A stretch of 64,000 bases of DNA from assembly GCA_003142795.1 (NCBI GenBank), contig PLNN01000019.1:51991-115990 (forward strand). The letters run 5' to 3'. Below the pieces are notes generated by a model. It searched no databases and had not been told where the DNA came from. It saw only the letters and a program-made list of their open reading frames with translations. Each line of letters opens with the position of its first letter. Position 1 is the stretch's first letter. Origin of the DNA: Candidatus Omnitrophota bacterium. Its GTDB lineage: Bacteria; Omnitrophota; Gorgyraeia; 2-01-FULL-45-10. Both the position numbers and the translations under genes were made by a program. Positions 28,147 to 61,504 of this stretch are shown piece after piece.

Positions 28147-31100
28147 ATGAATTTTGAGGGCTTAGTTAAAAGTAAATCGGTAAAAAACGAGCTGACTTCC
28201 AAATGTCTTTTTACGGGCTGGCAAAGTCATAGAAAGAAAAAATGGATTTGCCTCATCGCCATTATTCTTACCTGTACCTTCATTCCTCAAAACATAGCAT
28301 ATTCTCAAGATGCCGCTCCTATTTGGTCTAAGGAACAGAACGGGAACGGCGATGTCAGAATTCCTAAAGAAATTGCCGTTATAAAAGAATCTTACGCCGC
28401 CTCAAACGGTAAGACCGTGATCAATATACAAGACGCCCATGCTTCTCTAGGCGCCCAAGAATCGATCGTAGCCGCACTAGACTTTTTGGTGGCTAATTAC
28501 GACTTAAAGTTGGTAGCCATTGAAGGCTCAAGCGGATACATCGATACCTCTCTTTTAAAAACATTTCCCAATGAACGCATGAGAAGGAGTGCCGCTGAAT
28601 ATCTCATGAAACAGGGCAAAATGTCTGCGGGTGAATTCTTTTCCATCACGTCAAATAAACCAATAGCATTATATGGGATAGAAGATAAGCCGTTATATAC
28701 TGAGAACGTAGAGCAATTCCGTAAAATATACGAAATAAACGAGTCGGCAGGCAAAGATATCAAGAAAATGCTTGAAGTCCTGAGATCTTTAAAGGGCAAG
28801 ATCTATTCCGACGATCTGAAAGCGCTTGATGAAGATGCGGATCTGCATATAAACGGTAAGATATCATTTAGCGCACGATGGAAATTAACCCGGGACCTGG
28901 CGGCAAGATACGGGATCGATTATAAAAAATATGATAATCTGGCGAAGCTTATAAGATCTTTTGATCTGGAAAAAGGGATAAATTTTGAGAAAGCGAATAA
29001 AGAACGTAGTTTATTAATAAATGAACTGAGCAAAAAACTTCCTAAAGACAGGCTTGAACAAGTAATATTAAAATCCGCCTCATTCAGCGCTCATAAAATT
29101 GCTCAAGGTGAATACTATGCCTACCTGCAGCGTCTTGTCAGGGAAAATGGCATAGATCCCAGCCCCTATTCCAATCTCATTGCGTATACAGATTATGCAG
29201 CCCTTTATGAATCTGTAGACATTTTAGCGGTTTTTGAAGAAATAAAGGATTTAGAAGGCCGCATCCAGAGTAAGCTATTCAAAAATGAGGACCAGAAGAA
29301 ACTTTACGAATTCTCGCAATACATTGGACAGTTAAAAGACCTGTTCGAACTGAAGCTTACAAATGTGGATTTTAAATGTATTTCTGAGAACGGAAAAGAG
29401 TCTAATGCCCGCGAGATCTCAAAATTCGTAAAAGATGCCGCCGTAAAATATAACGTTAAGATCGATAATAAAGAAAATGACCTCGCTGGAACATTCCGCA
29501 ACATACCCATCGCATTAGAATTTTATAAAACAGCCGAAAAGAGAAACTCTGCGATGCTCGCCAATACGATAAAGCGGATGAGCGCGGAGGGGCAGAGGAT
29601 GGCGGCGTTGATAACCGGCGGCTACCATACAAAAGGGCTGACAGAAAGGCTGAAAGAAAATAAGACCTCTTATTTTGTACTGCTGCCGACATTCGATCCA
29701 TCCAAGGGAGAAAGGCCCTACGCCGCGATACTCACGAATAAAAAACAATCTTATGAATCGTTTCTGGACACAGGCAAATATTATCTTGCCACAAGCGCTT
29801 TGCTCGAAGGCGCCGACTTAACCAAATTCGAAGAAGCCTTCGGGCATATATTGGAACAAACGATCGATGAAATAAAAACCAAAGTTTCTGATCCCGGAGA
29901 AATAGAAACAAGGCTATTATCATCAATACATAGCTGGGTAGAAAACCGCGAGTCTTTCCTCAAGGCTAACCCTCCGCCCGGGGAGTTTCGTCCCATAAGA
30001 TCGGAGGAATTTGAAAAATATCTTTTGAGATTGTCCGGAAAATTACTCAGCAAACCGGAGAAATGGGAAGAAAAGGACAGAGACACAAAAGGCGAGAACG
30101 CCGGCCATGCGCGCGAAATAATAGAGGATTTAATAAAACAAGGTAAAGTGGTTGAAGTCTTCCTTGCAAAAGACCACCTGGTGGCATATCGCGTGAGATG
30201 GATATACGATTACAAGCCGGGACAGATACAAGAACGAGACAATGTCTTCGAGGAAGAGATAAAAGTGAATCAGTTGTTTACCACGGTGCAGCAAAATCAT
30301 ATGATTAGTTGGATAAGAGTCCATCCCATTAACAGGGGCGCGATCAGGCTCCCGCACTTTCGGGTAATTCTTGATGATGTCAGCTTAAGATGGACGGATC
30401 ATATTGAAACGTCTAATATTTGCCATGCCGGACATCGCGATGGCGTTATCTACATAGGCGAACGTCTATTAACGTCCATGTTTGATTATGCCAGCGATCC
30501 CGTTAGAAATCTTGTCCTGGACCAGGATGAATATCAGCATTTATTAGACCCTAATTTTGTCTGTACGGTTGACAAAAAAGTACTGAAAAAAAGATTAAGA
30601 GCGGTTAACGAAAGAATAAAAGATATTTTAAGCAAACCCCCATCAATCGCCAAATATAAACTTAAAGTTTGCACCACGCATGACGAGGCTATTGCTAAGC
30701 ATAGCGGCATCAACCCCGATAACGGTAATATACGATGGGGTAACTTTCGGCCACGGATGAACCCCTATATAACAGATCGGATAGGCCCCATAACGGTTTC
30801 AGCCGGACTTTACATTATAAAAAGCAAGGGAGGCCCTTCTTTAGAAACAGCGGATACAAATATGAAAATATGGGTGGAGGGGAAGGACGAACCCGGCAAG
30901 TGGAATGAAATAAAGATGGATATGATTTACGCCAAGGATCTGGGCGGGGGGATCGCTTTTTCGTTTGTCGGCACTCTACCCGCTTTCTTCAAGGGCAAGT
31001 ACACATTTAGGTATTCAGTGGATGGCGGTAAGAACTGGCAATGGGCCAATAATGGCCCGGGAGACGATAGGGTAATAATCAGGCAGGAAGCCTTGCAACA

Positions 31101-34100
31101 GAGCGGGAAAAAATTGATTGCAAAGCAGGCGGATGAATATCTGATAGGTCCAAGAGGCGGGAAACATCGCACCATACGCCTTTATAAGCACGACTTGAAT
31201 TTAAGGTGGATATTTGATATGCCTTCTGACAGCTCCGGACGCCGGATAATTTTTAGCGACAATAACATAGGGTCTGTCCAAGGAAAGGGTGAAGGCAGCG
31301 TAAGTATGTATTACGATCCTCTAGAGAAAGCCGTCCTGATCAACATGGAGAGCATGGTATCTAATGGGCCGTCACAAGATAGTGTTGGCGTACTTCGAGA
31401 GGCCGGATGGGATTTAGCGCGCATAAAAATACCCATAGATGAAAATGGCATAGCGAAAGAAGTTATCCATGAACGCGAATTTATGGGGATTTCGCGTTCA
31501 GGCATCGCGATTCTTTTAAAACATGCGGGGGTAGATACAAAATTTAAAGATATTTACGCATTAGTTAAGCAGGAGTTAGTTCTTCGCGAAGTAGATAAGT
31601 TTGCTGAGGAGCAGGAAGCTCAAGATACCAAGACACTGTCAATAGATCCTATGAATAAGGTAGATGATTTCTTAAGAGATCCTGAGGCTTTTGGTGTTTT
31701 TGAGAATTTGCGGGGTGACATAAAAAAGATAGAAGATATAATTATATTCGCAAAACCATGGGAATTGAAACAATATGCCTTAGAACGTCTTAAAGGGCTT
31801 GTTAATAAAGGATATTACGGTAGAGATGAGTATTTTGAACTTGCGACCTACGCCGCTGAAAAAGACGGCCTTGAAGAAATGGCCTATATAGAGAGAACGA
31901 TAAGGCAAGATAAGTCTTTTCTTACCGATATGGGTATAGATGCCGCCAGGGTAGACAGCATTACTTTACATTGGCGCGCCCGCGGCCTTACCAAAGCCAT
32001 ATATCACGTGACAATAAACATGGACGACGGTACGGAGCGCATTTTTGCCATAAGCCTTATGAGGCCGCTCTATTCGCAATTAGGGTTTTCGATGGAAGAG
32101 ATCGAGAAGTCATTGGATCTCTGGTCAAAGATGAGCGAGGCAGGCGTAGACTACGTGCCCCACTTTTATGCCGTAAGGCGGATTAACGATTATCGGCCGA
32201 AATTATTCGATAAAGAACTGCCGGTGCATACGACGCCGGGACCTACGATAGTTTCCAACACTATCAATCCGGCAAAGATCATGTACAATGACTTATTGAT
32301 AATAGCAAGAGAGTTCGTTCAGGGCTATGACATGCCCGGATATTGCACACATTGTTGTACTACGCATCAGGAAGAGAGGGATGTATATGTCGCCGGAATA
32401 AGCGCGTACTTCCGGATGTGGAAAGAGGGCAAAAAAACTGTTGCCGACACAGGGCGAGCTCTATTAAATCCCGATCCGCGCAATGTTGTTGTGCATCCCG
32501 AAGGCAATAATTACCATGGCGTTGTTACCGATCTAAATGGTTTGCGGGAAGGGGTCGGCCTGGAGGAACTTTTAACATCATTGCAAAAAACAGGTTATGA
32601 AAAAAAGGACGTCCTGGCTGCCGCGCGGCAGACGCTCGATGGGGCAGAGTATGAATTTGCGAAACAATATTATAGAACAGGCGAGCATCCGGATTTTAAG
32701 GCTGTGTGTACAGAAGCCCTTACACGCGAGAGCATCCAAAAATTAGTTGCCGGAATATTAAAGAATCCGGCCAGGTTAAATAAAGAGGAGCAGGTAATCT
32801 CCCCCAAAAAAGTGAAATTTGCGCTTGACAGCATCTTCCACATCGTAGGAAGAAGTACGAATGATCTATCCGGCGAAGATAGGCGTTTAATACTCTCAAA
32901 GATAAAAAGACTTATTCGCCAGGGATTTCCAAATAAAATAAGATATTTTCGCATGAGAGAAAGCCAGCAACCGGTCGCTGAGATGCTATGTGCATTCGCA
33001 AAAGAAAATACGCACTATCTTGTAGAGGGGTTCCTTAATGATGAAGGGTTTTCTTCCGCAGGGAATAGTTTGGCGCGGGAAGGACACCTGCGCAGAGTGA
33101 TATTACGTCAGATGCTTAGGGAACTTTATCCGAAAGGGGACAAAGCCGATAACATAGAAAAGACTCTATTAGGCCCGGATTTACTGTTTCGCGAAGCCCT
33201 TAGTAACTACGCGTGGAAATGTCGTATCAGGACCGCCATGGAAGACCATGTGCTGTGCCGAAACCTGGTGACCTATCAGAAATCTCGCGACAAAGACGTG
33301 GCCAGGCGCGCCGCGGCAGAATATGTAGAGACTATTTATATGATAATGAAGAAAGAGATGGATGAAGACGGAAGGGTGTTTGGTAGTAGCGAAGAATTGA
33401 TCGATTATCTAAGGACACATTTCGGCGTAAGAAAATTTATTATCGCCGGCGGCAAGGGCACAAGATTCTCCCCCGGTGGTCTTATCCTAAAGCCTCGTTT
33501 TAAACCAGACAACTATAACACCAATATAAAACTCTCCAGGGAATCATCGGCTTTCGGAACGCTTGAAGACGTGATAGTCGTTGACGCCACCACCGTGTTT
33601 TACATACTTAAAGACAAGTGTCCCATAGCTGCATCTATAAAGAGTGGAATACGCGATAGGATAAGCAGCGAGATTTCAAAACTTGTGGATGCAGGTGTTA
33701 TAGATAGCCGAAAAGGGGCGGATTTATCAAGCGCTATACGCAGGATAGTCGATGAAGAGATGCATTACACTCGCAGGCCCGATGGTCTATGGGACCTATC
33801 CATGGTGTTGCGCTCCATAGAAGAAAAGGCAGGCGAGAAAGACTTGAAGAGCCATCTGGTCATTGATAAGATAGCGTACGCGATATTTAAGACAATAATG
33901 GATGACAAGACGCTGATAGATAAAAGTAAGATAGACGAGCTCTTTGGCAGAAATTGCATTGTGGTGTTGGACTCAGGGGAAGGGCACGGAGGCGCTTATG
34001 CTGAAGCATTGTCCGAACTTGAGACTAGCGGTAAATTGCAAGAAGCGCGCTATTCGGTCATAGTGTATGCCGATTCACCCGGATGGGGGCTCGATAGGTA

Positions 34101-37100
34101 TCCCAATTACGTCTTTACGTCTTACCTTGCCACGGTGAACCTTCTTTCTCCGAAAGTGAATGACTTACCGAAAGTTACCATAGCGGTAAAAAACCCGAAA
34201 GACGGCAGGGCTGAAGGACGCGCTCGCGTTTTTACCGAATACACCGAAAAATTTGCCAATACACCTATAGGACTTAAGGAATGGGCAGACATGTCTCCCG
34301 CAGAAAGAGCCGAATCTATCGATATGGCAAGGCAACACGACCAGAGATGGCTTACAAATGCCAATATTCTTATCTATGATACGATGTGGGCCGCAAAGAG
34401 ACGCGGTGTTCTCTATGAGCGCTATCGTCACGAACTCGGAGAAGCCGGCGAGCACAAACAAAGATCTTATGAGTATTGGGCTAGCGATTATTTAAATATT
34501 GCCGCCGCTGAATATGAAGAAACAGCGAAAGAAAACCCGGATGCTTCGCCTATGACACGTCTTGTGTATGTCGGAGAGAGCGCTCCGGACGCATTGAAGA
34601 CCCTACCGACGGCTCTAAATTATAGAGATGATCGCCAAGACATGATAATAAAAAAGATAAGGGCGATGGGAGTCGTTGTTGATCCTGATGTGACGATATC
34701 GATATCCAGCGATGATATGGGTGCGGCAAGTTTTGATCTGTGCAGAGCTATCGATTCTATTTTTGGGGACAATCGTGAAGACGCACCTGGATCCGGTCCA
34801 ATAAGACTTAAGGGCACCATACATCTTAGCGATACCGTAGTTGTCAAAAAAGGAGCTACTTTGGATGGCACCAAAAAAGACATTTCGCTGACAGGCAAGT
34901 GCGTTGTTGAAAGAGGCGTGGAGCTGGGTGGTGTTATCGCAGAAAATGAGCTCTTTACCAACAGCCGCCCATACGAACAGGAAAATGTTTACCTGACAGG
35001 GTTTCCGTTTTCGAGCCAGAGCACCGTTGAATCTGTCCCGGTTACCGGAATAGATTTCAGGGCTATGGGTATTATTGTAAACGATTCCACAAGAGTATGG
35101 ATCGCAAAAAAGGATAAAGATAGAAGTGACCTCGAGATCCTCAAAAACATTTTCGGAAACGACACAGACGGCCACAGGGTGACAGACCAGATATTTTTAT
35201 ATGGCGATATTGTTCTGGATGAAAACGTCAGGGTTGAAAATGGAACTATGTTGGACGGACGGCGTAATAGAGTAATTCTTACCGGTAAGACCCACGTAGG
35301 TAAAGGCGTAAATTTAAAAGGCGTCAAGGCGGAAGACACGGTGTTTGCCGGCATCGATTATCTCGATGTCTACCATTACAGGCAACCGGCACACGACTCT
35401 ATTATCGAGATCAATAATTCTCTTTTTGTTAATTCTTACATAGAGTTCGGCGCCAAGGTGCGTAACTCTATGGCAATAAATTCCTGCGTTATGACAGAAG
35501 CGCTAATAGCCGAATCCGACATTTTAGGAGAAATCGTTGTCCCAGGTAATGATATTACAAATCGCCGGTTAAAAGACATGGTTAATACCGTATCTCTGTC
35601 TGTCGAAATAGGAGATAGGATCGAAAAGGATTATGTGCCCGGGCCATTCCGCCTCGAAGAATTATCTCCGGAAGATCAGGTGGGCATAAGAGAAGGTTAT
35701 CAAAAAGTTGCCGCATATTTTTATGAAAGGATTATCCCAGTTAGATCGGTAAGGAAAAGATTGATCGAAGATACACAAAAGTTCTTATACAGTGATGTTA
35801 CGGCCAAGCTTACAATAGAACAGCTGAAGCAATATATATTCGCCAAGGCAAGGGAAAATATCAGAAGATACGGCTCAAAAAGCAATGAGGCGGAAAGGCC
35901 TGCGCGGCTTGCGGCAGTTATCAGGGCACATTTGCAGCCGGTAATGGAAGAAGCGCATAGCGTGGACATGGGAAATGCGCCGGTCGCCAGGAACACGTTT
36001 CGCAGACTGGCCATATTGAGCGCCAGGTTCAATTTTGTGGACTATTCTATAAATCCGGAAATTTTCGACACCGGCCATCTGGATGCGGCTGCAAAAAACC
36101 CCGAAAAAGATTTTACGCTTCTGGATCAATTTGCCGAAAAAGAACTTGCCATTGACGGTCTGAATAAATTTGAGGAGATGGTCTTTGGCAGCCGCAAAGG
36201 AACGTTCTTATATCTCACTGATAATATAGGAGAGACCGAAGCTGACGCGCCGATGTGGGAATTTCTGGTCAGGATGGGGCACACCGTAGTTATCGGTGCC
36301 AAAGATGAATTTTGCTTTGGAGACATCGACGTTGAGGGAGTAGAAAAGATAATAGCTGACCATCCATCTCTTTCGGAATACGAGAAAAGCGGGGGAATAA
36401 GAGTTATTAAGACCGGTTCTGCGAGCGAGGGTGTATTCGCCCATAGTTTTAGCCATGAAGTGCAGGAAGTCTTAAAAGATAAATCTCTCATAGCGTTAAT
36501 TTCTAAAGGTCAGGCCAACATATTCAGTCTATCCGCCCGGAACAACATGAAAATGCCGGTAGTAGCTATGCTTGTGTCAAAGTCTATTACAGCAAAGAGG
36601 ATCACCGGTATCGCGCCCAAAGTTGTCGGCGACAAAACGACATTTTGGCCCGTCATCGCCGTGATCCCGGCAGGGAGCCATATAATGGACTGTAAAGGGC
36701 CGAGCCAATTCGAGGGAACGCTTCAAAGGTTTGGCACCGTTCGTGACGAGCTGGTTTCCGGGGAAAGGTCGAGTTTCATCGTAGGTTTACCGAAAGGCAC
36801 ACCAAAAAAAATTGCGAGCATGGTAGAAACGGCGGTCAATGCCTCCCCGCTTCTCGGCAAAACGGCAAAAATAGAAGTATTCAGCGAAGGAGCAGAAGAG
36901 TTCGATGAAATGTTGGCAAAGGAAAGGACGAACGGTGTTTATCTTGACGAAAGCGTTTTGAGCCAGCTGGCTGCTCAACAAGATGCCCAGGACTTGATCA
37001 ATTCTGTGAGCGTCACCGTTTCAAGTATACTTATAGATTCCAGGACGCGCGAGGATCTGGAAAATATTTTGATCGAAATCGAGCAGAATATTGAAGCGAT

Positions 37101-37842: not shown

Positions 37843-37957
37843 CTTATTAAGCTATAAAAAAGTTAGATTTTATGGATTGACAAGATTTTCAATTATGGTA
37901 TAGTTTATATACTATAATTAAAGCGATAAAAAGTCATTAATGATAGTTATCCACAAA

Positions 37958-37983
37958 GTAGTGGACGTTTAAACGTCCACTAC
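37958..37983 (+). promoter_or_regulatory. Perfect 26-bp palindrome (gtagtggacgtttaaacgtccactac) 18 nt upstream of the ORF3 start, a candidate operator or RNA hairpin
   Basis: gtagtggacgttt is the exact reverse complement of aaacgtccactac and the site is centred on tttaaa. It lies between the AT-rich promoter-like region (TTGACA 37877-37882, TATAAT 37913-37918) and the RBS aaggagag at 37988-37995. There is no downstream U-tract. Confidence 0.55.
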
Positions 37984-38000
37984 AACTAAGGAGAGTATAA

Positions 38001-41000
38001 ATGGTCAAACCATTATCCGGTTTCAGGAACACAATAGTCTGTAAAACCATCTCACTTTTTCTATTACAAGCTTTTCTCTTCTATAACACCTCCTTTGCAT
38101 CCATCGACAAGGCAGCCTCGCAGCCACTTACTAAAGATGTTAAATTTAAACAGGCATCCATTGATGATATAGGCATATCCAAAGACATAGGCACTATAAA
38201 GACGAAATTCAAAGGCAGCGGCGAAAAACTTCTTATCCACATCCAGGACGCCCATTGTAATTACGAAGCCCAGACGAATATCGCGAAGATCCTCGAAACT
38301 CTATCTAAAGATTACAATATTAACACAATATCGGTAGAAGGCGCTGACGGTTTTGTCGATACCGCGTGGTTCAAATCATTTCCGGACGCCGATATCCGCA
38401 AAGAGGTTGCCGACTACTTCATGAAGAAGGGCGAGATAACCGGCGCCGAATTCCTCTCTATTACAAAAGATTATCCGATCAAGCTGTACGGCGCAGAAGA
38501 CCGCGACCTATATATAAAGAACCTCAATGCCTTCACCCAGATCTACCCCCACAAGCAGGAGATAGAAAAATACCTCTTAGGCGTAAAGACCATCCTCGGT
38601 AAGCTTAAATCATACATCTACTCCAAAGACCTGATGAGTTTCGACGCTGTGACCGAAGACTATAAAGATAAGAAGAAGACGCTGTCTGATTACGCTAAGG
38701 TGTTGAGCATCCAGCTGAAACGCCATAATCTGGACCTTAAAGCCTATCCCGATTTCTCAAAGTTAGTCTATACGCTAATCTACGAAGATAAGATCGATTT
38801 CAAGGTCGTCGACCAGGAAAGGGCGAACCTTATAGATGCGATCTCTAAAGCCATTCCGAAAGACAAGCTCCAGGATATGGTGGTAAAAAGCTTCTCTTTC
38901 AAGACGGGCAAGATCACCGCGTCCGAATATTATGAATATTTAAAAACAATCGCCATAGATAACAATATCGATTTTATGAAATTGTATCCGAACCTTTCGA
39001 ACTATGTTATCTATACGAAACTTTACGACAAGATAAACACTGAACATCTCTTTGACGAAATAGACAGGATAAAGATCGCCGTAAAGGATAAGCTTTTCGA
39101 GAACGACGACCAGCGCATTTTAAGTGATGCATGGGATAACGTAAACATCCTCGTGGGATTTATCAACATCAAGTTATCGAATAAGGAATACGATTATTAC
39201 AAGGCCCACAGGGACAGGTTCAAGGTAGAATTTTTCAGTGATTTTATTAAATCCAAAGTCGGCCAATATAATCTCGCCTATAATATAGACGAGCCGACCG
39301 AGAACGTAAAGACGAACATTCCGCAGCTGGAGACATTTTACGAGACGGCTTCCAAGAGGGACAAGGTGCTTGTCGATAATACAGTCGGTTCTATGAAGAA
39401 AGAGAAGGCAAACGTCGCAGTCCTGATAACAGGCGGTTTTCACACTACAGGCATATCGAAGATCCTTGAGGGAATGAACATATCATATATAGTAGTATGC
39501 CCGACCATCACCAAAGACGTCGAATCTCCGTATATCCAGGTCCTCACAAACCAGAAGACACCGTTCGAGGAGATACTGACAGAGAGCGCAACGCCCACGA
39601 AGAAGGATTCACTGCTGGGACCGTATCTACTCGCACGTAAGATCATGATGCGTTTGAACGGTGAGAAGGGTGCAATCAAGGCGCTTCAGGGCGCCGTAAA
39701 CCAGGCCGGCGGAGAAGCCGATCCTGTCGGGGCGATACAGTCGTGGGTGGCGTTCTATGTCGATCGTTATGTAGCCGCGATCAGAAGTGATGAACGGGCA
39801 AATAATAGCACGCCGCAGTCACTCGAAACATTGCGCAATGCCTTCGTTTTAGCGTTTTACAACTCTTTAGACACGCCTCGTATTTCACCGGAAGAGAAGA
39901 AGCAATTCGAACGGGAAACGCCTCCGCTCATAGAAGTGGAATTCAATAAGCTTATCAATACACAGACCGCGTCCGAATCTGCGCCGACGCAGCAGAATAT
40001 TCCCACGATAGTCAGAAAATCGCCTACGGATAATTCTGACGAATTGGATAAAAACGGCTTAAGGAAGCCGGGCGATTCTAGGCGGGACTACCAGAAACCG
40101 GACTCGCTGATACGCAACATCGGTGAAGGACGCGCGGCGGCTGAAAAAGCCATAAAGAATTTTGATATCCAAAGCGATGCCCGTAAGGCTTTGATCAAAA
40201 TTTTTGTTGATAGTTGGACGGCGAGAGGCCCTGAAGCTTTCTCAAAAGATCTGGAACGTTTTCAAGCAGATCCTCTTGGATTTGCACAGGAACAGTTGCA
40301 AAACACGGAAAAGAGACTCACGGCCATCAGACAAAATCTGGATAGAGTAGCATATTCACCAAGTTCTAAAAAAAGGCCTGTTGCGCAAGATTTGAAAAAA
40401 GACTTAGAAAGTGCAATTTGGCTTAAAAACGCTTTAACAAACTTCATTTCGGAACTCGAAAACAAGAACACGGCAGGGGCGGACCATAAAAATACGGTGC
40501 AATCCGTGTCCGAAGCGCGCGCGGCGGCAGAAGCTGCTGTTGCCAAGGCAGGCCATGGCAATATTAAGTATTATTTAGAACCAGTGGACAGAAATCCTGC
40601 ATACAAATTTTTTATCGACTATTTAGTGGGGAAATGGAATAAAAACTCGTCTGTCGAGTTTACGCAAGCATTGGAAAGACTCAACGCATATCCTCTCGAT
40701 ATTTTTGATGAGGTTCAGGCTGCGGCGAAAAAAAATAGCGCAGATGCTATCATTAAATGGACCGGTGTTCATAAATCTACCGAACCTGGAAAACTACCAG
40801 CTCCCATAAGTCCTGAAGAGAAAAACCTGCATGATGCATGGGAGAGGGCAAGCGCTATAGAGGGCCAGTTTAATGGCTACATTCACCATCTCGAACAGGC
40901 AAGCTGGAAGCGCGCCCCGCAATCCATGCCGGTGAGGAAGGGTGCTGGCGATAAGGCGACTGACAGCGGCATATACGGTATGATGGAACTTAACGATGCC

Positions 41001-44000
41001 GAAGTCGCGGCGATGCGCGAAATACAACGCCAAAGTTTCGTGGAAGGAACTTATAGAATAGCCACGGCCAAGGAGCTTGGGTTTACGGAATTGGGCGATT
41101 TCCGGTTTGTCGTGCATTACGGCCTCGAAGCCAGGATAGAGAAATATAATAAAGAGCACGGAACGAACCTTAAGACCGACAGGATCGACGCAGGCACAGG
41201 CGGCGAGGAATACGGTTATGGGCTCAGGCAGGCGCATATAAGCGCATATCGCTTTAATTCTCTGATCAGAACGAAATCCGGCAAAAGAGTGCTGGAAGTA
41301 ATAGCCACTCACGAATCTTTGGGCCACATCGCGATCGCGAATAAAGAAGGCGGCTCAGCTGCCTATAAAATGAAGCTTGCCGACCCGGCCATGAACGAAG
41401 AGGATGTCGTGGACTTTCATGTCCCCGGAGCTAATACAAGATGTGCATACGACTGGCTTCCAGGCAACATTACCATACGGCAGTTATTAGCGCAGATAGA
41501 TGAAAGCCGCAAAAACGATGAATTATACCAGATGGAAGAAGGGCTTCTCACCGATACCGCTTATGGTACAGCCGCTCGTGACGAGATAGTAAGACTGAGA
41601 AAAGAAGGCAAGGATTATGAGGCAGGCGAATTTGCAAAGTTAGTTTACGCAAGAAGAGCCAATATCGACAGGATGAAGAAAGTGCTTACAGAGCCTTATA
41701 AAGATTATGACGTCATCATCATAAGCTCTACAACCGAAGCTGAAGCAAAAGACCAGGAAGCTAATCTCAGGAAAATTTTCGGCGGCATCAAGACATCGAA
41801 CAATGCGATGGGTAACAAGGTGTGCGTCCTCTCTATGCTTGACACTTCGGAAGGTAACAACCTGATAGGGCAAAATGTTACAGAGGCCGAGGCAATAGAG
41901 GCGTTTAAGAAATGGGCAACCGAGAACGGCTTACCGGAAACGGACCTTACTAAGCTCCAGGCCGAAAAAAAGGTAAAAGTGGCAACATATCATAACGGCG
42001 GCAAGGCCGAGAGATTTTCTCCGGCCGGCCAGGCATTGAACCTGTCAAGGGCAGACCAGCTGCTTGTTGGAAGCGTCTTTGACATGAATGGCAAACCTAT
42101 AGAATTAAATCTTCTTTTGACCGTCATTCTATCCACTGCATTTAACGCTGAAACGAACGATGGATCGATGCACGATGTGTATTGGGCGAACCAGGCAGAA
42201 GTTGGCGCAGTGTTGAGTGTGATCAGGCATGGATACGTCTTTAACAAATTTGCAGTTGCGGTGCCGGCAAATCCCAGCATGAAAGACCTGTATGATTACG
42301 GGACGTTGATCGCGACAAAAGATGGCCGTATACTGAAGTTCCTCGGCAATAAGAAACTTACCGAGAAAAATAGTGCCGGCAGGTATATCCCAACCTCAGA
42401 TCCATACTGGCGTGCTAAATATGACGAGCTGATGGAGGCCGCCAAAGAGGGCAGGGCATATTTTGATTACGGTTCATTCAGCATGAGCTTAGATATGCAG
42501 AATGCTCTTCTCGAATATTGGCGCGACGTTAAAAAAATATTTACTGTTATGCAGAATGATGTAAATGGCAGAGCAGGTATATCGCGCGAGATCGATCCTC
42601 AGATGACCCAGAATATTGTTCCGATAGTAAATGGTGTAATGGGCCATGAGGCTGAGCTAAGTCAGCTTCCGACTATCACAGAATTGGATTCAGCTGCTGA
42701 TAAGAACGCGATTTTGCACAAAGCCTATCTTGCATTATTAAATATAATGGCTCCCGAATACAAAACCATATTAGAAGGTCTATATACGAAAGCAAAAGAG
42801 GATTTAGTAAAAAAGGAAAAAAAGGAGCCCGGGAAGAAAGATAACGATCAGAATCTCCAGGCTATATACGAAACGATCGAATTTTTCATCAGATACAAAG
42901 ATACTGTTAATTTAATGAAAGGATTTGGTATAATAGATTTCGGGCCCGGCAGCCATTGGTTCGCATATAAGAGGCTGCTCGATATGGGTAACGAGAAATT
43001 CTTTATGTTGGCCGATATGACCGGGCAGAGCATGGAACTCGAGCCCAATGGTAATGATCTACGTGCGACCGCGACTGTCCAGGATAAGGTAAAGGCTGAA
43101 GATGCCCGCAGGCTAAGGAGTATACCAAACAGCGCTGTCTGCGTATTTGAGGTGAACGGGCAAAAGGTAACGCTTAGCGCCGGGCAGGCGGCTAAAGGGT
43201 GGGAAGGCCATGGCGTTAAAGTAAAGGGCTCTATTATACAAGGGAATACCGTTCTTCTGCCCGGCTCAGAGATCGTAAATAGCGGCGTCAATAATTCCCA
43301 GGGCCGGATAGCGGCTGCAAATTCATATATAGATTCATCGACCGCCCCGAAAATAGAGGCTAAGAATAGCATTGTAGTAAACGGCGTTGATGGAAAACTT
43401 ATTATCGCGAATAGCGAAATTGTAACCGACGCGTTCAGGCCGGTTATACATGACGACAGGTTCGCGGACGGGCATACGAGGATGCGAGCGCCCGTAGGAT
43501 ACGATCCTAAGCCGGGCGATGAAGCCCTGGCGGCCAAAATGTCGGATGCCGTCAGGTTCGGCGATAACAAATATTCATTTGAGGAGATCAGGAATATGTC
43601 GTGCGACAAGGACGCGAACAAGGCGATCGAGAAGACGGCAAGAGATAGTGTACATGCGAGGCTCCAAATGATATCCGAACGCTGCAAATATTGTATAGAT
43701 CATTTCAAGCTGTTGAAATTCGGAACAAGCGGATTGAGAGACAATGACTCCGCTCTTACCGATATGGAGGTATATATAAACGTCCGCGGCCTTGTGAGAT
43801 ATCTTACCGGCATCAACTCGAGGATGGACGTGCCGGACCATATTAAGAAACTGGTATATGAAGGAGCTATTCAAAAATTGTCCGACATAGTGCTTGCAGG
43901 AGATCTCAGGCCGTCCACCCCCCGGATTTTAAAAGCAGTCGCAGTTGGTATAGTAGCGGAAGGCGGCGCGCCTGTATATATAGGAAAACAGCCAACGCCC

Positions 44001-47000
44001 CTGCAAGTTCTCTACTCATTGAAGAAATCAATGGCAGGATTCATGACTACAGGCAGTCATATCCCGCTCGGTATGAACGGCCTTAAAGGTAACAGGCCAA
44101 ACGGTGAGTTGTTAAAACAAGAAGAGAAACTCATCCTGACGGAAGTCGCCAAAGTGAGAAACGGGGAATATCTTCAAACCGATGCCGAAAGCATGTTCGA
44201 TAGGAACGGATTTTTCAGGACGGACGGCAAGATTTCCGGAAACCAGCGCAATATCATTTCGAAAGCCGAAGAAGCCCTTGATCCGGAGAATCCGAATAGA
44301 CGCGAAGCGGAGAAACTATACGAAGACCGTTATTTAGGCGGTCTGGGAAGGTGCCTCGAGGGCGTCGACGTTCTCTTCTGGCAGCATTCTGCGGTTGGCC
44401 GCGATATCATTCCCGATATTATGAGAAAGATGGGAGCCAACATTACGACCGTTGCGCCTCTCGATGTGAGTAAAGGCGAATTCTGCTCACTAGATACGGA
44501 AGATGTTAAGCCGCAATTCAAGCAGCTGGTAAAGAAATTGATGCAAGATAATAATAAGAAGGTCCTTATCACAACCGATGGCGATTCCGATAGGCCCGCC
44601 GTATTTATACTGGCGAAGAATCCTTTTAAGAATGGCGAGGAAGACGTTTATTATTTAACCGGAGATAAGCTCGCTATAATTACGGCGTTGTTATTGAAGC
44701 CCAAGTTCTTTGCGATACCGGTTACGTCAAACCATATAGCTCTGCAGAAATTACGTGATGCGGTCCCCGGCATTAAAATAGAGCTTACAGATGTAGGCTC
44801 TCCTTATATTGCCGAGGCTATGTATGCGAATAACGAAGGCGATCAGGCCAATGGCTGCGAGGTCAATGGAGGATATTTCATAGGGTCTCAGGTATTCAGG
44901 ATGCCCGAAGAAACAATAGCGAAAATAAGGGCATTGAACAGGAGCTCCTCTTCTCCGCTCGCTGAGCCCACCGGCGAATTTTCATATCTTCCTTCGCGGG
45001 ACGCGTCAATCGCGTTAATAAGCATACTGCTTTCGGCGAAACTGAAGAATATGACGGTCGAGGAGTTGATAAGGGACACGTTCAGCGGAAAATACGCGGC
45101 TGAGACATCGGCCGGGCTCGTTGAGAACGTATCCGATAAGCAGCGCACGCCCGGATGCGAAGATTACCAGAAAGAGATGGGACCTGCAATAGCGAAGAAC
45201 CTTTCTCCGAAAAACGCAAATATACTCGAGGTGATATTTGAGGGAGATGAAGTAAGGTATGTGCTTAAAGACGATGCCTCAGGAAAAAAACGCGATGCCG
45301 ACAAGCCGTTGAAGGCAGAGGCATTGGCTATAAAGTCACGGCTTGAGGCGAGATTGAAAACTATAGCCGGCTTGCAGGGCCAAAATATCGTACAGATCAA
45401 TTTTAAAAACGGCGTTCGTGTATTCTGGTCGAACAGGGAAACTATACATTTACGAGCGTCCAGCAACGCGGCGCAGTTCAGGGGATATACCCTGGCACCC
45501 GGCGAGATGTTCGATCCCCGGCCGGAGCAGATGGTTGAAGAGATGACCGCGCCAAGCACCGGGCCGCTCGTTAAAATAATTCAAGATTATATAAATGAAA
45601 CTACCGGCAAAGCTGTCTCTACTGCCGCGGCATCGGCCTCGTCTTCCAGGAAATCGCCCGGCAGGTTCGCGACATCGGCAGACGCGCCGCAGGGCGGACA
45701 CTTGCGCGAGCTAGTTGCTATCGGTACAAAATACTCGCTTGATTCGGTCGATCCCGACCTGATAGATAGAGAGATCGCCAACGGAGCCACCAGTGCTACG
45801 TCTAATCCTATTATAATATCGAACCTTGTCAAAAAAGTGCTTGCGAATATCGAGAAGAACGGCGGTCCGCAGACTGAATTCGAGAAAGGAATTTATTCGA
45901 TCCTCGCAAAATCTCCCAATGAGGAAGTCGCGACCAGAGAAGCGACCAAATTTATCATAGGTTTCGTCGCGGCAAAATTCAGGCCCGTTTATGACAGAAC
46001 AAGCAAGAATGACGGATATGTAAGCATTGAAGTCGATCCTCGGCTAGAGGACACGAAAGAAGGCCCGTATGCAACATGGACGCATGAAGAGCGGGTGGCC
46101 GAAGTTAAGCGTCAAGCCGTCGAATTCAGCAAGATCGCGCCTAATATCCTGATAAAGATACCTGCTACTAAAGCCGGACTTGACGCCCTGGAAGATCTCG
46201 CCTATCAAGGCATAAACCTTAACGTTACTCTTATATTTACGCCTGAACAGGCTTATGCGGCAAGAGAGAATGTATGGAAAGGCCTCCAAAGAAGAAAAGC
46301 TGAAGGGAAGTCCTTAGACATAAAGAGTGTTTATAGCATCTTTGTCAGCCGGACCGATGATTATACGGCTAAGAAAGCCCCGGATCTGCCTTCAAATGTT
46401 CAGGGAGAGATTGGAATATACATCGCGAAGCTCATATATCTTCAGAATAAAGAATTCTGGCAGGATAAAGGACTTTCCTTGAGCCAGGAAATGATATTTG
46501 CTTCTACCGGCAGTAAATCAAAATTGGTAGCCGGGATCAAGACCGAAGCGGATGTTTTAAAACTAGTCGAATTAGCGACATCCGGATCCAAGGAAGCAGA
46601 AGATGCGATGAATGCATTAAAAGAAATGTGTAGATATGTCTATGAACTTGCAGGAGACGATATTCAGACCAATCCGCCCCTGACAGCATTTGCCGTGAAT
46701 GTCGCACCATTTGCGATAACCGAAAAAAGAGTAGGTGCATTACCTGCTTCCGAAGTTCGGAAGATAATGATACAATATTTAGATTCTCACATGCAGGAAC
46801 TTTATGAGGCACTAATGACTGATGGCATTGCGAAATTCGTGAATCCGCAAGTTGAGTTGGTAAAGAACGTTGCAGCGGCTATGGCAAAAATTCCGAGATC
46901 GCCTGCCGCAACTCCGGAGAATATCGTGAAAACGCTCGTAGATAATCGTAATCCTCAGGCTGCTGTGGCCGGCATATTCGATAATCGCCAGGAGAGTGAA

Positions 47001-50000
47001 TATCTGCCTGCCCTGAGTGCAGTCGCTAATGAATTGAATAAGCGCTACGCAACTCTTACGTCCGATCAGAGGGATGAGCTTTGGCCGGTATTAGAAGAGT
47101 TTTATTCTACCCTGACCAGACGAGCGTGGAGCACCGTAAATGACGTAAATATAGCACGCGGCCTTCAGATAATGACCGGCAATACCATTGCCATTCAGAA
47201 TCTGATCGAGATAGGCCTGAGCGGAGCAAAGAGTATACAACTTACCGATAAGGCCGACGAGATGTTGAAAGCCGAAGATAAAGATAGAGGGCCAAGCTAC
47301 ATTAAAGCTTTTTCTATTCCTAAATCAATAGGCATTGCCGAAAGCGAAGGCCGCCCGGGTGTTTATTGGAGAGGCGCCGAAGGCATTACAAAACTGGGAC
47401 CCAATGGCGAAAATATATTGCCGTGGGCCGCATACGCAGCGAATCAGCATGATGAATATAAGAAATTCATAGGTTATACTATGCTTCATGTGAGCGATTT
47501 TCACGTTACTGTGTTTGTAAATCAATTTCTTCCAAATTCGATCCAATATACGAGCACGGGCGCAGGCCACTATCAGGGAGATAAACTTGATGTAAAAGTT
47601 GTTACAAGAGGTGCCCTTCGCCAGATGCAGGACGTATATAATGCAACCGGCAATCGGACAACAACGACAGCGCAGGATGCAGGAAAAGGTAGATGGGTAT
47701 TTGCATCTCCGCGCACAGTCGACTATACCGTTCCGCTTAGGCCAATAACGGTATTCAATGATGAAAGCATATTACCGCTGGGTACAAATATGCGCGCAAT
47801 CGGACCTGAAACAGTGCAGGTTGCTCCTTACGCGACTATTGATTTCAATGGTAAGCCTGTATTGGTCAAAGCTGTCAGCGACGCTCCCGTGTTAACGCAA
47901 CTGGAATCATATCCCGACCGTAGCGCCGTCCTGACTAGAGCGCCGGTACAAATAGCAGAATCGGAAAGGGTAACTGTTTTGGATGCGAACACAGTAACAG
48001 CTATAGGAAGGTTGAATGATCTTATCGAATCCGGACACCCGCTTAATATCACATCAACATATAATTTAGGAAAGAACGGTTACAAGTGGGGCGAGCCAGC
48101 CGGAGTGAGTTTCATAATCGGGCTTGAAAGTAATACTCTGCCAGCCGTCCTGCAGGAAGCCATCAGCACCAAAGACCGCGTTGCCGAAAGATTGATAGCC
48201 GCAGGCGTGATAGACTTGGGTGAAGGCTATAGCCTTCCGACGAGCGTATTGTCATCGTATTTTGGCCAGGAGCCTGAAATTACAACTAAGGTGCTTGCTT
48301 CAGCGATGCCTCTGTCTGTGCAACTGCATACTTTTGCCGAGATGATAATCCCTCTCGAAAAAGGGACTGCATGGATAGGGGTCAAAGAGAATGTCACAGC
48401 CGAACAATTAATAGAAGCGGCTAAAGAAGGCAGGATCCAGGATGTTCTGCAGGAAGTTGAGCTTGAGACGGGAGTGCCGATGATCGTTCCTGCTTATCTG
48501 CCGCATGCTTACGGAAAAGTGAGGGTCTATGAGGTTAAGGCAGTTACGCCTCAAGAAGACGCTACCGGCACAACCTCATTCTTTGACAGGCTGAAATATT
48601 TAAGCCCTGAATTTGAAGCTCAATTGAAGGCTTTGAACATTACATCGTTACAGATGACTCCGGAGCAGTTAAGACAGCTCAATCCCGGAAGAGAGAAGAA
48701 AGACGTTCTTACGATGCCTGAAGCAACTTTGGCCGAGACGAAGAAACGATTGGCTGAGGCCGAAAGCTCAGGCGCTTTGAATAAAACGAATATCGAGAAT
48801 TTGAAGTTTACACCGGTCATTGTGAGCGCGCCATCCATGAAGAATACCGAAGAGGCGAGGCTTGAGGTAATGGGCGTGGCAGAAGGACGTTTTATAACGG
48901 TCCGTTATACGGTTGCGGAGAATCAGTCGATCCAGTCGGGCCCGATTCTATCCGGCAGAAAGCACACGCTTTTTGTATCAGAAGGCGAGATCGAATTAAA
49001 TACCGATCAGGGCGTTACTACAACATTGAAAAGAGGCCAGGATATAACTGTGACGCCTAATATGCAGTATTACACCATCAGGTCACTGAAAGGCACGGCC
49101 GTTATTTATACACAGGTTCCGCCGAAGAAAGAATTGCCCGCAACTGAAACCGCGAGGCTTGCAGCGCAGATCAATAATAATCAGAAAAGCCTGAAGGCTG
49201 CCGTATCGAAAGGAAGAGAGGTCATTCTCGCCCCGAACGACAGGACCTCCGAAAGATTATCTGTTACAAGCAGCGCGAAACAGGATATCCCGCAGGCGAA
49301 AGAGAAAGAGGTGGCCTTATCGCTCGAAGACGGCAAAGCGGCTATCGTTAAAGAGAATGGCGATACGGTAGAATTAAAGCCTGGTAATCCCATAATCGTT
49401 CCGGCAGGCATGCCGTTATCGATACAGTCACCGGTTGTGGCGATAGTGAAAATTGCTTATACGGAATCTCGTGAAGAGAGCGCTTCATTTACGTCCATTA
49501 ATGTCACAAAGCGTAATCTCGCGGCGATCACAGCCACAGGTAAGATAGACCTGCTGGTTAACGACAGCCTTTACCAGAAGGACGGCGACTATGCCAATTC
49601 TGTCGCAAAAGAGCAGGAATTCTGGAAGGGGTTGAACGTCGACGTCGTATTGGTAAAATATAGCGATGAGCTTGGATTGAGCGACGCGGCCGATAAGTCG
49701 ATCAGGAACGGCGCTATTCCCATTTTGGTCGGAACGGCAGAAAATTTCCAGAAGGCGGATGTTTCTGATCCAAAGATAGCGAAATTGTTGTTGAAGGCAA
49801 AGATATTGCCTCCAATCGATCTGGCGAAGATAGAAGGTCGCCGCGGCTGGTTCTTTACAAGAGAAATAGAAGCCAGCGCGATCCTTTTGGCTGCTACAAC
49901 CGTCCAGAATATACGAGATCATGATCCGATAGCGGAAGACCTGCAGAAATTGATGCAGAAATTCGGTTTGCCGATAGACGACATCAACCAGCTCTTATGC

Positions 50001-50177
50001 ACGATGTCTTTCGAGGAATTGCAGAAGCTGGGAAGCGATTTCCTCGATGCGAATGGCATGCCTAGCCTGTTAGCGAAGATAGAACTGGTAAAACGGCTAT
50101 TGATAACGCTGCCTGCTAAACCATTCAATGCCGACGACGATCTTCACAGGCGCCGCGAAGTTCTCTGGAGCGTGTAA
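38001..50177 (+). CDS. Giant secreted multidomain protein (4058 aa): N-terminal conserved domain, NTP-transferase-like motif, LbH, phosphohexomutase domain, transaldolase domain and cupin-like segments
   Basis: Uninterrupted ORF with a strong RBS (aaggagag, 6-nt spacer, ATG 38001). The N-terminal signal-peptide-like segment is [22 protein letters not shown]. The embedded enzyme domains are listed as separate features. Confidence 0.85.
   Translation: [4058 protein letters not shown]
38225..39515 (+). other. Conserved N-terminal domain, paralogue of ORF2 28415-29700
   Basis: See the ORF2 domain feature. Protein identity across the domain is about 30-35% by eye. Confidence 0.35.
41987..42031 (+). 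other. Degenerate NTP-transferase glycine-rich motif ([15 protein letters not shown]) in ORF3
   Basis: Aligns with ORF2 IIAGGKGTRFSPGG but has GKAER in place of GxGTR. Confidence 0.3.
43200..43440 (+). other. Hexapeptide-repeat (LbH) segment in ORF3
   Basis: [70 protein letters not shown]. Confidence 0.4.
43700..45520 (+). other. Complete alpha-D-phosphohexomutase (PGM/PMM superfamily) domain embedded in ORF3
   Basis: It has the N-terminal [10 protein letters not shown] motif, the catalytic-serine loop [11 protein letters not shown] (equivalent to TASHNP), the metal loop TTDGDSDRP (DGDxDR) and the phosphate-binding loop [15 protein letters not shown] (RxSGTEPxxRxY-like). It is collinear with the free-standing paralogue at 58964-60622. 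Confidence 0.8.
45700..46560 (+). other. Complete transaldolase-family domain embedded in ORF3
   Basis: It is collinear with E. coli TalB. [13 protein letters not shown] aligns with [28 protein letters not shown] aligns with [57 protein letters not shown] aligns with [40 protein letters not shown], with the Schiff-base Lys conserved. [11 protein letters not shown] aligns with ISPFVGRILDW. Confidence 0.8.
48900..49450 (+). other. Cupin-like segments in ORF3, possibly mannose-6-phosphate isomerase type II-like
   Basis: [57 protein letters not shown] and [34 protein letters not shown] have the G(X)5HXH...E...G...P.G..H...N shape. No strict motif was verified. Confidence 0.3.
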
Positions 50178-50196
50178 TCTATACGAGGTTATAACT

Positions 50197-56411: not shown

Positions 56412-56423
56412 TAAGCCCCTTCA

Positions 56424-56452
56424 TTGACAGGCAGTTATGGAAGTGCTATAAT
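56424..56452 (+). promoter_or_regulatory. Consensus sigma-70 promoter with extended -10 (TTGACA-17-TGcTATAAT) upstream of the GH130 gene
   Basis: TTGACA 56424-56429, TATAAT 56447-56452, exact 17-bp spacer, TG at 56444-56445. RBS agagagga precedes ATG 56511. Confidence 0.7.
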
Positions 56453-56510
56453 TTCCATCTATTTATATAAAATATAACTGATAAACAATACACACAAAGA
56501 GAGGAAAATA

Positions 56511-57455: not shown

Positions 57456-57493
57456 AGCTTAAAAGCGCAAAAAATAAAAAGGAGAGAACACCA

Positions 57494-61467: not shown

Positions 61468-61504
61468 GCCTGGTGCCTAATAAATAGGAGATAAGGAAAA
61501 TAAA

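Follow-up and report, generated by a model that had tools for sequence, protein, structure and literature searches.

Giant multi-enzyme proteins are already known as a general phenomenon of the bacterial phylum Omnitrophota, having been described by West-Roberts et al. (2023) and by Nielsen and Lui (2026, bioRxiv 10.64898/2026.06.07.730766). These proteins carry many sugar-metabolism domains, with phosphoglucomutase/phosphomannomutase (PGM/PMM) domains prominent, behind a signal peptide or transmembrane (TM) segment, and glycoside hydrolases are encoded nearby. Here we analyze a 64,000-nucleotide stretch of DNA from Candidatus Omnitrophota bacterium (GenBank assembly GCA_003142795.1, contig PLNN01000019.1, positions 51,991 to 115,990 of the forward strand; hereafter the window), which shares these traits and in which two consecutive open reading frames, ORF2 and ORF3, encode proteins of 3.2 and 4.1 thousand amino acids (kaa). 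The proteins of Nielsen and Lui are at least 10 kaa in length and those of West-Roberts et al. are mostly >30 kaa, many with numerous TM helices, whereas ORF2 and ORF3 have a signal peptide only. Both fall short of the 10,000-aa length of class 1 of Nielsen and Lui, for which a third reading frame upstream (ORF1) alone qualifies, although they share with that class an Omnitrophota origin and distinct enzyme domains that tile the chain behind a signal peptide. Neither West-Roberts et al. nor Nielsen and Lui mention TraB, erythromycin esterase, transaldolase, mannose or the two-gene cassette described here.

Two further systems bear comparison. The type II mannose-6-phosphate isomerase–GDP-mannose pyrophosphorylases (PMI-GMP; AlgA/XanB/ManC) and FKP (L-fucokinase/GDP-fucose pyrophosphorylase) combine a sugar-1-phosphate nucleotidyltransferase, a beta-helix linker and a cupin isomerase or kinase in one chain. 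ORF3, however, links five or more enzyme modules, its PMI-like module most resembles the type I enzymes, and neither nucleotidyltransferase-like region of the pair reaches the Pfam or PDB sequence threshold. The MARTX toxins likewise flank swappable central cargo with constant N- and C-terminal parts, and the MARTX effector RRSP shares the fold of the N-terminal domain considered below. In contrast, the glycine-rich A/B/C repeats, cysteine protease domain (CPD) and type I secretion system (T1SS) features of MARTX were not detected in ORF2 or ORF3 with Pfam, the N-termini are of Sec type, and the cargo resembles housekeeping metabolic enzymes and not toxins; the likeness is one of analogy only.

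Taken as a whole, it is fairly probable in our assessment that ORF2 and ORF3 form a pair of exported-type proteins, each built as head, cargo and tail, with sugar-phosphate enzymes as cargo, a link to mannan use and modules that are reshuffled between lineages. Undescribed in the literature searched are the N-terminal head, which has a TIKI-like fold with a helical insertion, the two conserved tails, the two-gene cassette linked to permeases and a GH113 glycoside hydrolase, and the occurrence of this head–cargo–tail grammar well below 10 kaa.

The plus strand of the window consists of three consecutive very long ORFs, and the bounds and giant size that a preliminary description had given for the second and third match ours exactly:

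28147–37842, plus strand: ORF2, intact, 3231 aa; head, lineage-specific cargo and C2 tail
38001–50177, plus strand: ORF3, intact, 4058 aa; head, Hx, enzyme cargo and C3 tail

A protein identical to ORF2 (P0121) was called on 4 contigs of independent assemblies, and on the longest of these, a 162.5-kb metagenome scaffold, ORF1, ORF2 and ORF3 were called as 10511, 3231 and 4058 aa. Locus L095 carries an orthologous pair that is 70–77% identical and differs little in length (3219 and 4007 aa), and uninterrupted orthologues of 2–4 kaa occur in dozens of species. The ratio of nonsynonymous to synonymous substitution rates (dN/dS), determined by the Nei–Gojobori method for the window pair versus the L095 pair in 200-codon windows, is 0.18 for ORF2 relative to its 76%-identical orthologue, with every window between 0.10 and 0.26. 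For ORF3 the overall value is 0.17, with 0.04–0.06 in the head, and the highest window across both genes is ≤0.34. Purifying selection acts over the entire length of both genes (dN/dS ~0.18). In view of the identical copies, the L095 pair and these ratios, ORF2 and ORF3 are translated genes under selection and not artefacts. The opposing idea, that they are assembly chimeras, decaying pseudogenes or separate genes read through under another genetic code, could draw on relatives in low-coverage assemblies that are split into overlapping ORFs (L003, 2.27x). Nonetheless, the agreement among independent assemblies, the conserved lengths and the full-length constraint render it hardly credible, and it is effectively refuted already.

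As the preliminary description had proposed, the two proteins begin with a homologous domain, referred to here as the head. Specifically, residues 69–540 of ORF2 and 56–526 of ORF3 are 34% identical over 473 aa (BLASTP, E = 2e-79). This collinear N-terminal stretch of ~470 aa is the only significant similarity between the two proteins in BLASTP, a 14-residue match at a GGKxxRFSP motif reaching only E = 1.3.

28351–29766, plus strand: ORF2 head, TIKI/EreA/ChaN-like with a helical insertion (aa 69–540; BLASTP match to the ORF3 head, included in the 32-sequence alignment)
38166–39578, plus strand: ORF3 head, TIKI/EreA/ChaN-like (aa 56–526)

A database search with the ORF3 head returned 181 relatives, nearly all without a precomputed Pfam domain, and those that are named all derive from metagenome-assembled genomes (MAGs) of Omnitrophota or of the Planctomycetes–Verrucomicrobia–Chlamydiae (PVC) group. 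The head was also suspected of defining a family of large proteins, and this holds for its close relatives: among the 80 best loci of the genome scan described below, heads at least ~46% identical to that of ORF3 start ORFs of 1.2–3.9 kaa, and more distant heads are standalone proteins of 520–580 aa.

With respect to structure, the AlphaFold model of the head (mean predicted local distance difference test score, pLDDT, 90.4) contains a small alpha/beta core, in which a parallel beta-sheet is flanked by helices as in the TIKI superfamily. The fold relatives of the model, with their scores, are HopBA1 (10.1), Bcr135 (10.0), a TraB protein (9.3), ChaN (9.2), Bcr136 (9.0), EreC (8.8) and RRSP (7.9), all of which are grouped as the TIKI superfamily in PMC6254334. 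A Foldseek search of the model against the PDB yielded no significant match, with EreC, Bcr135 and ChaN appearing only at E ~1. The 2His/2Glu catalytic motif of RRSP comprises E3900, H3902, E3930 and H4030 (PMC6254334). The invariant residues of our 32-sequence head alignment are D34 and H36 (in IQDAH), E64-G65, E101, R225, R404 and G429-G430-x-H432 (in GGFHT). These include a D34-x-H36 pair, a glutamate (E64) 28 residues past the histidine as in RRSP, and H432 within GxxH, and the E-x-H...E...H constellation of the superfamily is kept with Asp instead of Glu as the first acid. Because the head has these same fold relatives and because its 2His/2Glu-type residues are invariant, we assign it to the TIKI-like fold.

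The head also differs in other respects from the rest of the TIKI/EreA/ChaN/TraB superfamily. Its core is split in the model by an all-helical bundle of ~300 residues (~119–418), and no sequence model of a member family detects it, the TraB, Erythro_esteras, ChaN/Cofac_haem_bdg and GumN models giving no Pfam or NCBIfam match in ORF2 or ORF3. In our reading, the head represents a new branch, dark at the sequence level, of the TIKI/erythromycin-esterase/ChaN/TraB hydrolase fold; what had been called a secreted domain is, judging from the model, a TIKI/EreA/ChaN-fold hydrolase-like domain. Its fold and conserved residues predict that it probably retains catalysis. To our knowledge, the fusion of a TIKI-superfamily domain to kilobases of metabolic enzymes has not been reported.

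To place the pair in its family, we rely on a genome scan with one genome per GTDB species, which found 346 head-encoding stretches, the 80 best loci being kept. Of these 80 loci, 79 belong to Omnitrophota MAGs, judged from title or mislabelling pattern, some being titled 'uncultured Planctomycetia'. Locus L084 holds a standalone head homologue (9794–11503, 570 aa, 37% identity) on a contig binned as 'Actinomycetes bacterium'; either this contig was mis-binned and belongs to Omnitrophota, or the head occurs, rarely, outside the phylum. The genes of the pair end in two conserved and mutually unrelated C-terminal domains:

36766–37824, plus strand: C2 tail, ORF2-type (aa 2874–3226); ends the gene directly upstream of a head gene in ~31 loci
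49377–50174, plus strand: C3 tail, ORF3-type (aa 3793–4058); ends head-bearing genes in ~28 loci

Profiles of C2 and C3 found no PDB sequence relative, and a metagenome scan with a narrow C2 alignment returned 5 loci. Wherever the upstream gene is visible whole or nearly so (L065, from Candidatus Tantalella remota; the metagenome locus L092; L095), both genes of the pair carry the head. Moreover, in a neighbour-joining tree of 98 heads, ORF2 groups with P0122, the first gene of L065, and P0123, and ORF3 falls in a separate 40-member clade together with the second gene of L065. As the ORF2 and ORF3 head clades each include other species, the duplication predates these species, and the tandem pair is therefore old; it is also widespread and conserved in Omnitrophota. 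The earlier notion of a duplicated megaprotein is thus correct for the heads, which are paralogous, but the head alone was duplicated, the tails being unrelated, and the event is ancient, not recent. Two or three head genes in a row, short standalone forms included, were also observed at L001 (5483–15592; 1439, 538 and 581 aa), L085 (1523–7073), L064 and L051, and the head family has thus undergone repeated local expansions.

Between head and tail, the two proteins differ in cargo, ORF2 carrying a DUF89 domain and lineage-specific modules and ORF3 phosphomannomutase, transaldolase and PMI-like cupin modules. The cargo of ORF3 is the better defined of the two:

40944–41750, plus strand: Hx (aa 982–1250), with an invariant H-E-x3-H and a downstream E
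41751–43694, plus strand: NT3 (aa 1251–1898; GGKAERFSP at 41997–42023), a putative FKP-like sugar-1-phosphate nucleotidyltransferase with beta-helix
43713–45710, plus strand: phosphomannomutase/phosphoglucomutase module (PGM), complete (aa 1905–2570); Pfam PGM_PMM I/II, best PDB relative phosphomannomutase 4hjh at 7e-31
45735–46865, plus strand: transaldolase module (TAL; aa 2579–2955); Pfam TAL_FSA at 4.8e-36 (125 bits versus a cut-off of 27), NCBIfam transaldolase at 1.5e-36
46902–47975, plus strand: U8 (aa 2968–3325), a conserved module of unknown fold, conserved in at least 6 loci
47994–48851, plus strand: type-I mannose-6-phosphate-isomerase-like module (PMI; aa 3332–3617)
48861–49430, plus strand: two small cupin domains (CUP; aa 3621–3810); Cupin_2, MPI_cupin_dom and Cupin_3 at 2e-5 to 2e-4

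These matches bear out the phosphohexomutase, transaldolase and cupin-like segments named in the preliminary description. Domain I of the PGM module lies above the Pfam cut-off and domain II just below it (28.8 versus 29.3 bits), and domains III and IV were not detected. The module nonetheless aligns end to end with a standalone PGM encoded further downstream in the window (58964–60622; E = 2e-69), and its TGSHIP (phosphoserine) and DGDSDR (metal) loops are intact; EVNGG and RASSNA can also be read. The transaldolase module contains both the IKIPAT lysine motif and the SIEVD motif; its subfamily is uncertain because the NCBIfam equivalog cut-offs are missed. Among the ORF3-type proteins of the fetched loci it is missing except in L095 and, as a differently placed copy, in L014, and it is best viewed as a lineage-specific insertion. 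For the PMI-like module, a 14-sequence profile gave 15 PDB matches, all 15 of them mannose-6-phosphate isomerases (E = 3.6e-4 to 0.04), and the invariant Q112, H114, E118 and H173 reproduce the zinc-ligand pattern of type I PMIs. The cupin matches are all below the Pfam gathering cut-offs. Hx accounts for 45 jackhmmer domain matches, usually at aa ~660–760, and its best PDB sequence match as a profile, the minigluzincin MJ1213 (E = 0.35), is not significant; the U8 profile found no PDB sequence relative. Taken together, the identifiable ORF3 modules would cover the interconversion of fructose-6-phosphate, mannose-6-phosphate and mannose-1-phosphate, possibly continuing to a nucleoside-diphosphate sugar, together with a link to the pentose phosphates.

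Less of the ORF2 cargo can be assigned, and the following two modules are the most informative:

33364–35406, plus strand: GGKGTRFSP module (aa 1740–2420; motif at 33448–33474), a putative nucleotidyltransferase with repeats rich in beta-strand-like segments
35827–36588, plus strand: DUF89/ARMT1-like damage-control phosphatase domain (aa 2561–2814); Pfam PF01937 at 7.6e-13 (48.8 bits versus a cut-off of 25)

The DUF89/ARMT1 match spans profile positions 75–297 of 311 and is the sole ORF2 domain identified by Pfam and PDB sequence searches; NCBIfam gave no ORF2 match. The middle cargo of ORF2 is rare, recurring in 2 other proteins of a 5.8-billion-protein collection and in the upstream gene of L056. 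Two candidate assignments were discarded: a kinase-like reading of aa ~1150–1500 (NPDPRN...TDLNG), whose residues are not kept in P0123, and the equation of the module at aa 620–830 with Hx, which is not significant (hhalign E = 0.077, probability 0.7%). Across ten unannotated segments of ORF2 and ORF3, Pfam searches at E ≤1 returned noise apart from the sub-cut-off cupin matches.

The GGK[GA]xRFSP motif occurs once per protein (ORF2 aa 1768, ORF3 aa 1333) and is absent from ORF1. The preliminary description had combined this motif with a hexapeptide beta-helix in a nucleotidyltransferase-like module common to both proteins. The motif itself stands, but no canonical hexapeptide repeat was detected by Pfam, and regular-expression and periodicity counts were no better than in shuffled sequences. 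The common origin of the two regions finds weak support, their family profiles being collinear at hhalign E = 4e-4 (probability 34%), and jackhmmer started from NT3 did not recruit ORF2. The NT3 model has a pLDDT of 56.7, its poor quality being due to an alignment of 7 sequences; the PDB match that aligns most NT3 residues is the pyrophosphorylase part of FKP, and a beta-helix in ORF3 is suggested by the same model. The N-terminal part of NT3 also has distant matches of ~500 aa, but these lack Pfam domains and so give the module no name.

The gain, loss and shuffling of modules that had been postulated is directly visible among orthologues once all loci are mapped with module profiles. Writing N for the head, the ORF3-type architectures range as follows:

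N-Hx-C3: L063, L066 (1.3–1.4 kaa)
N-Hx-PGM-C3: L056, L068, L071
N-Hx-NT3-PGM-C3: L057, L060
N-Hx-PGM-PMI-CUP-C3: L046, L051, L055, L073
N-Hx-NT3-PGM-U8-PMI-C3: L010
N-Hx-NT3-PGM-TAL-U8-PMI-CUP-C3: this window, the richest

Head and tail are constant in these proteins and the cargo is variable. A comparison with the closest relative points in the same direction. ORF3 (38001–47870) and its L095 orthologue (10312–20181) are 82% identical over aa 1–783, show no alignment over aa 784–1214, and then continue at 56%, 36% and 76%. In L095, ~115 residues replace ORF3 aa 784–1214, a 431-residue segment comprising linker and most of Hx, and divergence within the PGM module is saturated. This mosaic suggests that modules have been replaced by recombination among close relatives. 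The linker between head and Hx is the fastest-evolving part of the protein (dN/dS 0.31); within it (39700–40940, aa ~570–980) we noted two similar helical segments, …AAAEKAIKNF…FVDSWTARGPEAFSKDLERFQADPLGF… and …AAAEAAVAKAG…FIDYLVGKWNKNSSVEFTQALERLNAYPLDIF…. NT3 also exists as a standalone protein of 650–750 aa, and in L089 such a gene stands immediately before a standalone PGM/PMM gene, the two matching ORF3 1198–1876 and 1905–2499 in the same order, an adjacency that provides a Rosetta-stone link between the two activities.

In terms of location, the N-termini of ORF2 and ORF3 both show a positively charged n-region, a hydrophobic core of ~13 aa and a small-residue cleavage-like site (AYS|Q and SFA|S), in agreement with the signal-peptide-like starts reported earlier:

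28243–28302, plus strand: ORF2 signal-peptide hydrophobic region (h-region; aa 33–52, after HRKKK); Kyte–Doolittle scan, positive-inside pattern
38001–38102, plus strand: ORF3 signal peptide (aa 1–34, ...NTSFA|SI), read from the sequence

No further hydrophobic segment of TM grade was found in either protein by Kyte–Doolittle scan. Across 94 family members, the mean net charge is +2.9 before the hydrophobic core versus -0.6 after it, and is higher before than after the core in 91 of the 94, a family-wide asymmetry that appears to be the signature of Sec signal peptides. Some standalone NT3 proteins have a signal peptide and some do not. Topology varies among family members, since the ORF2-type protein P0123 (L088 9977–20335; >3445 aa, cut by the contig end) contains several internal TM-like segments; it also carries ~1700 aa extra between the head and its ORF2-like modules.

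The region downstream of ORF3 opens with a 772-aa ORF (50128–52446, plus strand) whose first 50 nt overlap the end of ORF3. Translation probably begins at Met codon 24, ahead of a signal peptide (MSKTIKRALGALLILVFAVQTCYCG), and the protein gives a weak HAD-IIB match (NCBIfam TIGR01484, 1e-4); this haloacid dehalogenase (HAD)-like protein looks like another sugar-phosphate-type enzyme, apparently exported. Two GFO/IDH/MocA oxidoreductases and a xylose-isomerase-like TIM barrel are also encoded downstream of ORF3, as is a group of genes for mannan use:

55500–63157, plus strand: ATP-binding cassette (ABC) permease, GH130, MFS_2, standalone PGM/PMM, ABC permease and GH113, by Pfam

The GH130 and GH113 assignments correspond to a mannoside phosphorylase and a beta-mannanase, respectively. 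The permeases are 59–69% identical to a pair that immediately follows the ORF3-type gene in L056, L046 and L071 and is itself followed there by GH113. In L006, L045, L063 and L066 the pair is likewise encoded downstream of the ORF3-type gene. Standalone PGM genes are common near the cassette, and GH130, MFS_2 and the oxidoreductases are specific to the window or rare elsewhere.

Building from these observations, we propose that ORF2 and ORF3 are two members of an ancient tandem pair, each with a Sec-type signal peptide ahead of its head, cargo and tail. The cargo would be a string of complete sugar-phosphate enzymes, kept by selection and working as covalently linked metabolons. In ORF3 these would form a mannose line of nucleotidyltransferase-like, phosphomannomutase, transaldolase, mannose-6-phosphate-isomerase-like and cupin modules, and in ORF2 they would comprise the other nucleotidyltransferase-like module, a sugar-phosphate phosphatase of the DUF89 type and modules whose fold is unknown. 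Since the pair lies just upstream of the conserved permease pair and GH113, the cargo may interconvert mannan-derived mannose-1-phosphate, mannose-6-phosphate and fructose-6-phosphate, and possibly GDP-mannose. Modules would be recruited by fusion of neighbouring operon genes, an origin suggested by the adjacent standalone genes of L089, and then gained, lost and replaced between lineages. The head could act in anchoring or in proteolytic processing of the chain. Of this proposal, the head homology and fold, the conserved residues, the synteny, the variation in cargo, the purifying selection and the signal-peptide features are shown by the data, and export, the activity of each module, the pathway and any role of the head are inferred.

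Several observations weigh against this proposal. The mannan genes other than the permeases and GH113 are not conserved beside the cassette, and the mannose theme cannot be generalized to the whole family because many head-bearing proteins of other loci have cargo that our module profiles do not recognize. The PMI assignment reaches only E ~4e-4 and is best worded as PMI-like. The nucleotidyltransferase identity is putative, the two motif regions having given no Pfam or PDB sequence match even as profiles and the evidence being the motif together with the low-confidence NT3 model. For Hx, U8, C2, C3 and the bulk of the ORF2 cargo, no relative with a known function could be detected. The signal-peptide calls derive from hydrophobicity and charge patterns, which are not a rigorous topology prediction. 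Finally, sugar-phosphate and nucleotide-sugar enzymes are normally cytoplasmic, and export leaves them no obvious substrates or nucleoside triphosphates. West-Roberts et al. (2023, bioRxiv 10.1101/2023.11.21.568195) met the same puzzle in Omnitrophota proteins of far greater size, whose glycolytic-type domains are predicted to lie outside the cell.

This last difficulty would disappear if the pair acted as a metabolon on the cytoplasmic face, with the N-terminal hydrophobic segment tethering it to the inner membrane or remaining unused and with the modules acting near the ABC transporter on imported mannose phosphates. PMM, PMI, transaldolase, nucleotidyltransferase and DUF89 chemistry is cytoplasmic in all characterized systems, the genes adjoin ABC permeases, the cytoplasmic GH130 and PGM, and standalone NT3 homologues without a signal peptide exist; West-Roberts et al. 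themselves raise the possibility that the predicted extracellular location of similar domains is wrong. We nevertheless regard this placement as rather doubtful. The N-in/C-out charge pattern in 91 of 94 members, the h-regions of ~13 residues and the FA-type cleavage motifs indicate cleaved Sec signals and not reverse anchors, ORF2 and ORF3 lack a second TM segment, signal peptides of their own are found on some standalone NT3 proteins and on the adjacent HAD-like protein, and the cytoplasmic PMM of the locus would be redundant. Family-wide signal peptides, those of the standalone NT3 and HAD-like proteins, and the presence of a cytoplasmic PMM in the locus favour export, and action in the periplasm or at the surface is the default within our proposal.

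The presence of a fused and a cytoplasmic PMM in one locus, which suggests different compartments, is also compatible with a role in cargo delivery, by analogy with MARTX toxins and their autoprocessing protease. In this case, the constant head and tail would serve secretion or translocation, and the variable central enzymes would reach the surface or the cytoplasm of a host or prey cell, where they could draw on or divert its pools of hexose phosphates and nucleotide sugars. Proteolysis by the TIKI-like and HExxH-like domains would set the cargo free. Such a role would fit the conserved signal peptides, the constant ends with swappable cargo, the mosaic identity of the closest orthologues, the presence of the host-delivered effectors HopBA1, RRSP and PMT among the fold relatives of the head, and the description of Omnitrophota as predatory or episymbiotic bacteria with secreted giant proteins. 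However, the MARTX-type repeats, CPD domain and T1SS signal were not detected in the Pfam searches, and ChaN and TraB, likewise fold relatives of the head, are ordinary periplasmic or membrane proteins. Moreover, a protease role of Hx is not essential, since L095 has ~115 unalignable residues in place of linker and Hx. We consider delivery unlikely; if it were true, the proteins would be a platform for exporting entire sets of central-carbon and nucleotide-sugar enzymes, and thus metabolic 'effector cassettes' of episymbiotic or predatory Omnitrophota and not housekeeping enzymes.

A number of features around the pair deserve mention. A TTGACA element had been noted before each gene and is indeed present at both (28032 for ORF2, 37877 for ORF3), but a strong promoter consensus accompanies only the latter:

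37877–37904, plus strand: ORF3 sigma-70-like promoter, TTGACA-16-TATAGT with TG extension; 11 of 12 consensus positions

Both its -35 and -10 elements are kept in the orthologous L095 spacer. Between this promoter and the ribosome-binding site of ORF3 lies a perfect 26-nt palindrome (GTAGTGGACGTTTAAACGTCCACTAC, 37958–37983), absent from the L095 spacer, which could be an operator, a hairpin of the 5′ untranslated region or a small insertion.

Upstream of the pair, a third giant that was absent from the preliminary description, ORF1 (157–27915, plus strand), is open from base 1 with 9252 aa visible; it is cut by the left window edge, being 10511 aa in the source record. ORF1 contains ~22 hydrophobic segments together with CofD-like, TPR, HEAT and methyltransferase matches, and its C-terminal 4650 aa have no Pfam match. 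Elsewhere, a head-carrying gene in L088 is immediately preceded by a giant of 13053 aa, and giants of ~7.8 kaa with a Peptidase_C39 match lie directly upstream of head genes, some of them standalone heads (L001/L002). ORF1 has no BLAST-level similarity to the giants upstream of head genes in other loci, and the connection is therefore one of position only.

The giant proteins of Omnitrophota are a recognized knowledge gap, and the existing surveys take proteins of at least 10 kaa and rely on Pfam. The family described here offers a tractable counterpart of 3–4 kaa with a clear grammar, namely a signal peptide, a TIKI-fold head, optional enzymes and a fixed tail, arranged in a two-gene cassette that is linked to sugar import. 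The head can serve as a marker domain for finding such proteins, the natural fusion and fission variants indicate which enzymes cooperate, and the TIKI/erythromycin-esterase superfamily would gain a new, sequence-dark branch. Moreover, the family provides a concrete test of whether sugar-phosphate metabolism truly takes place outside the cytoplasm in these bacteria.

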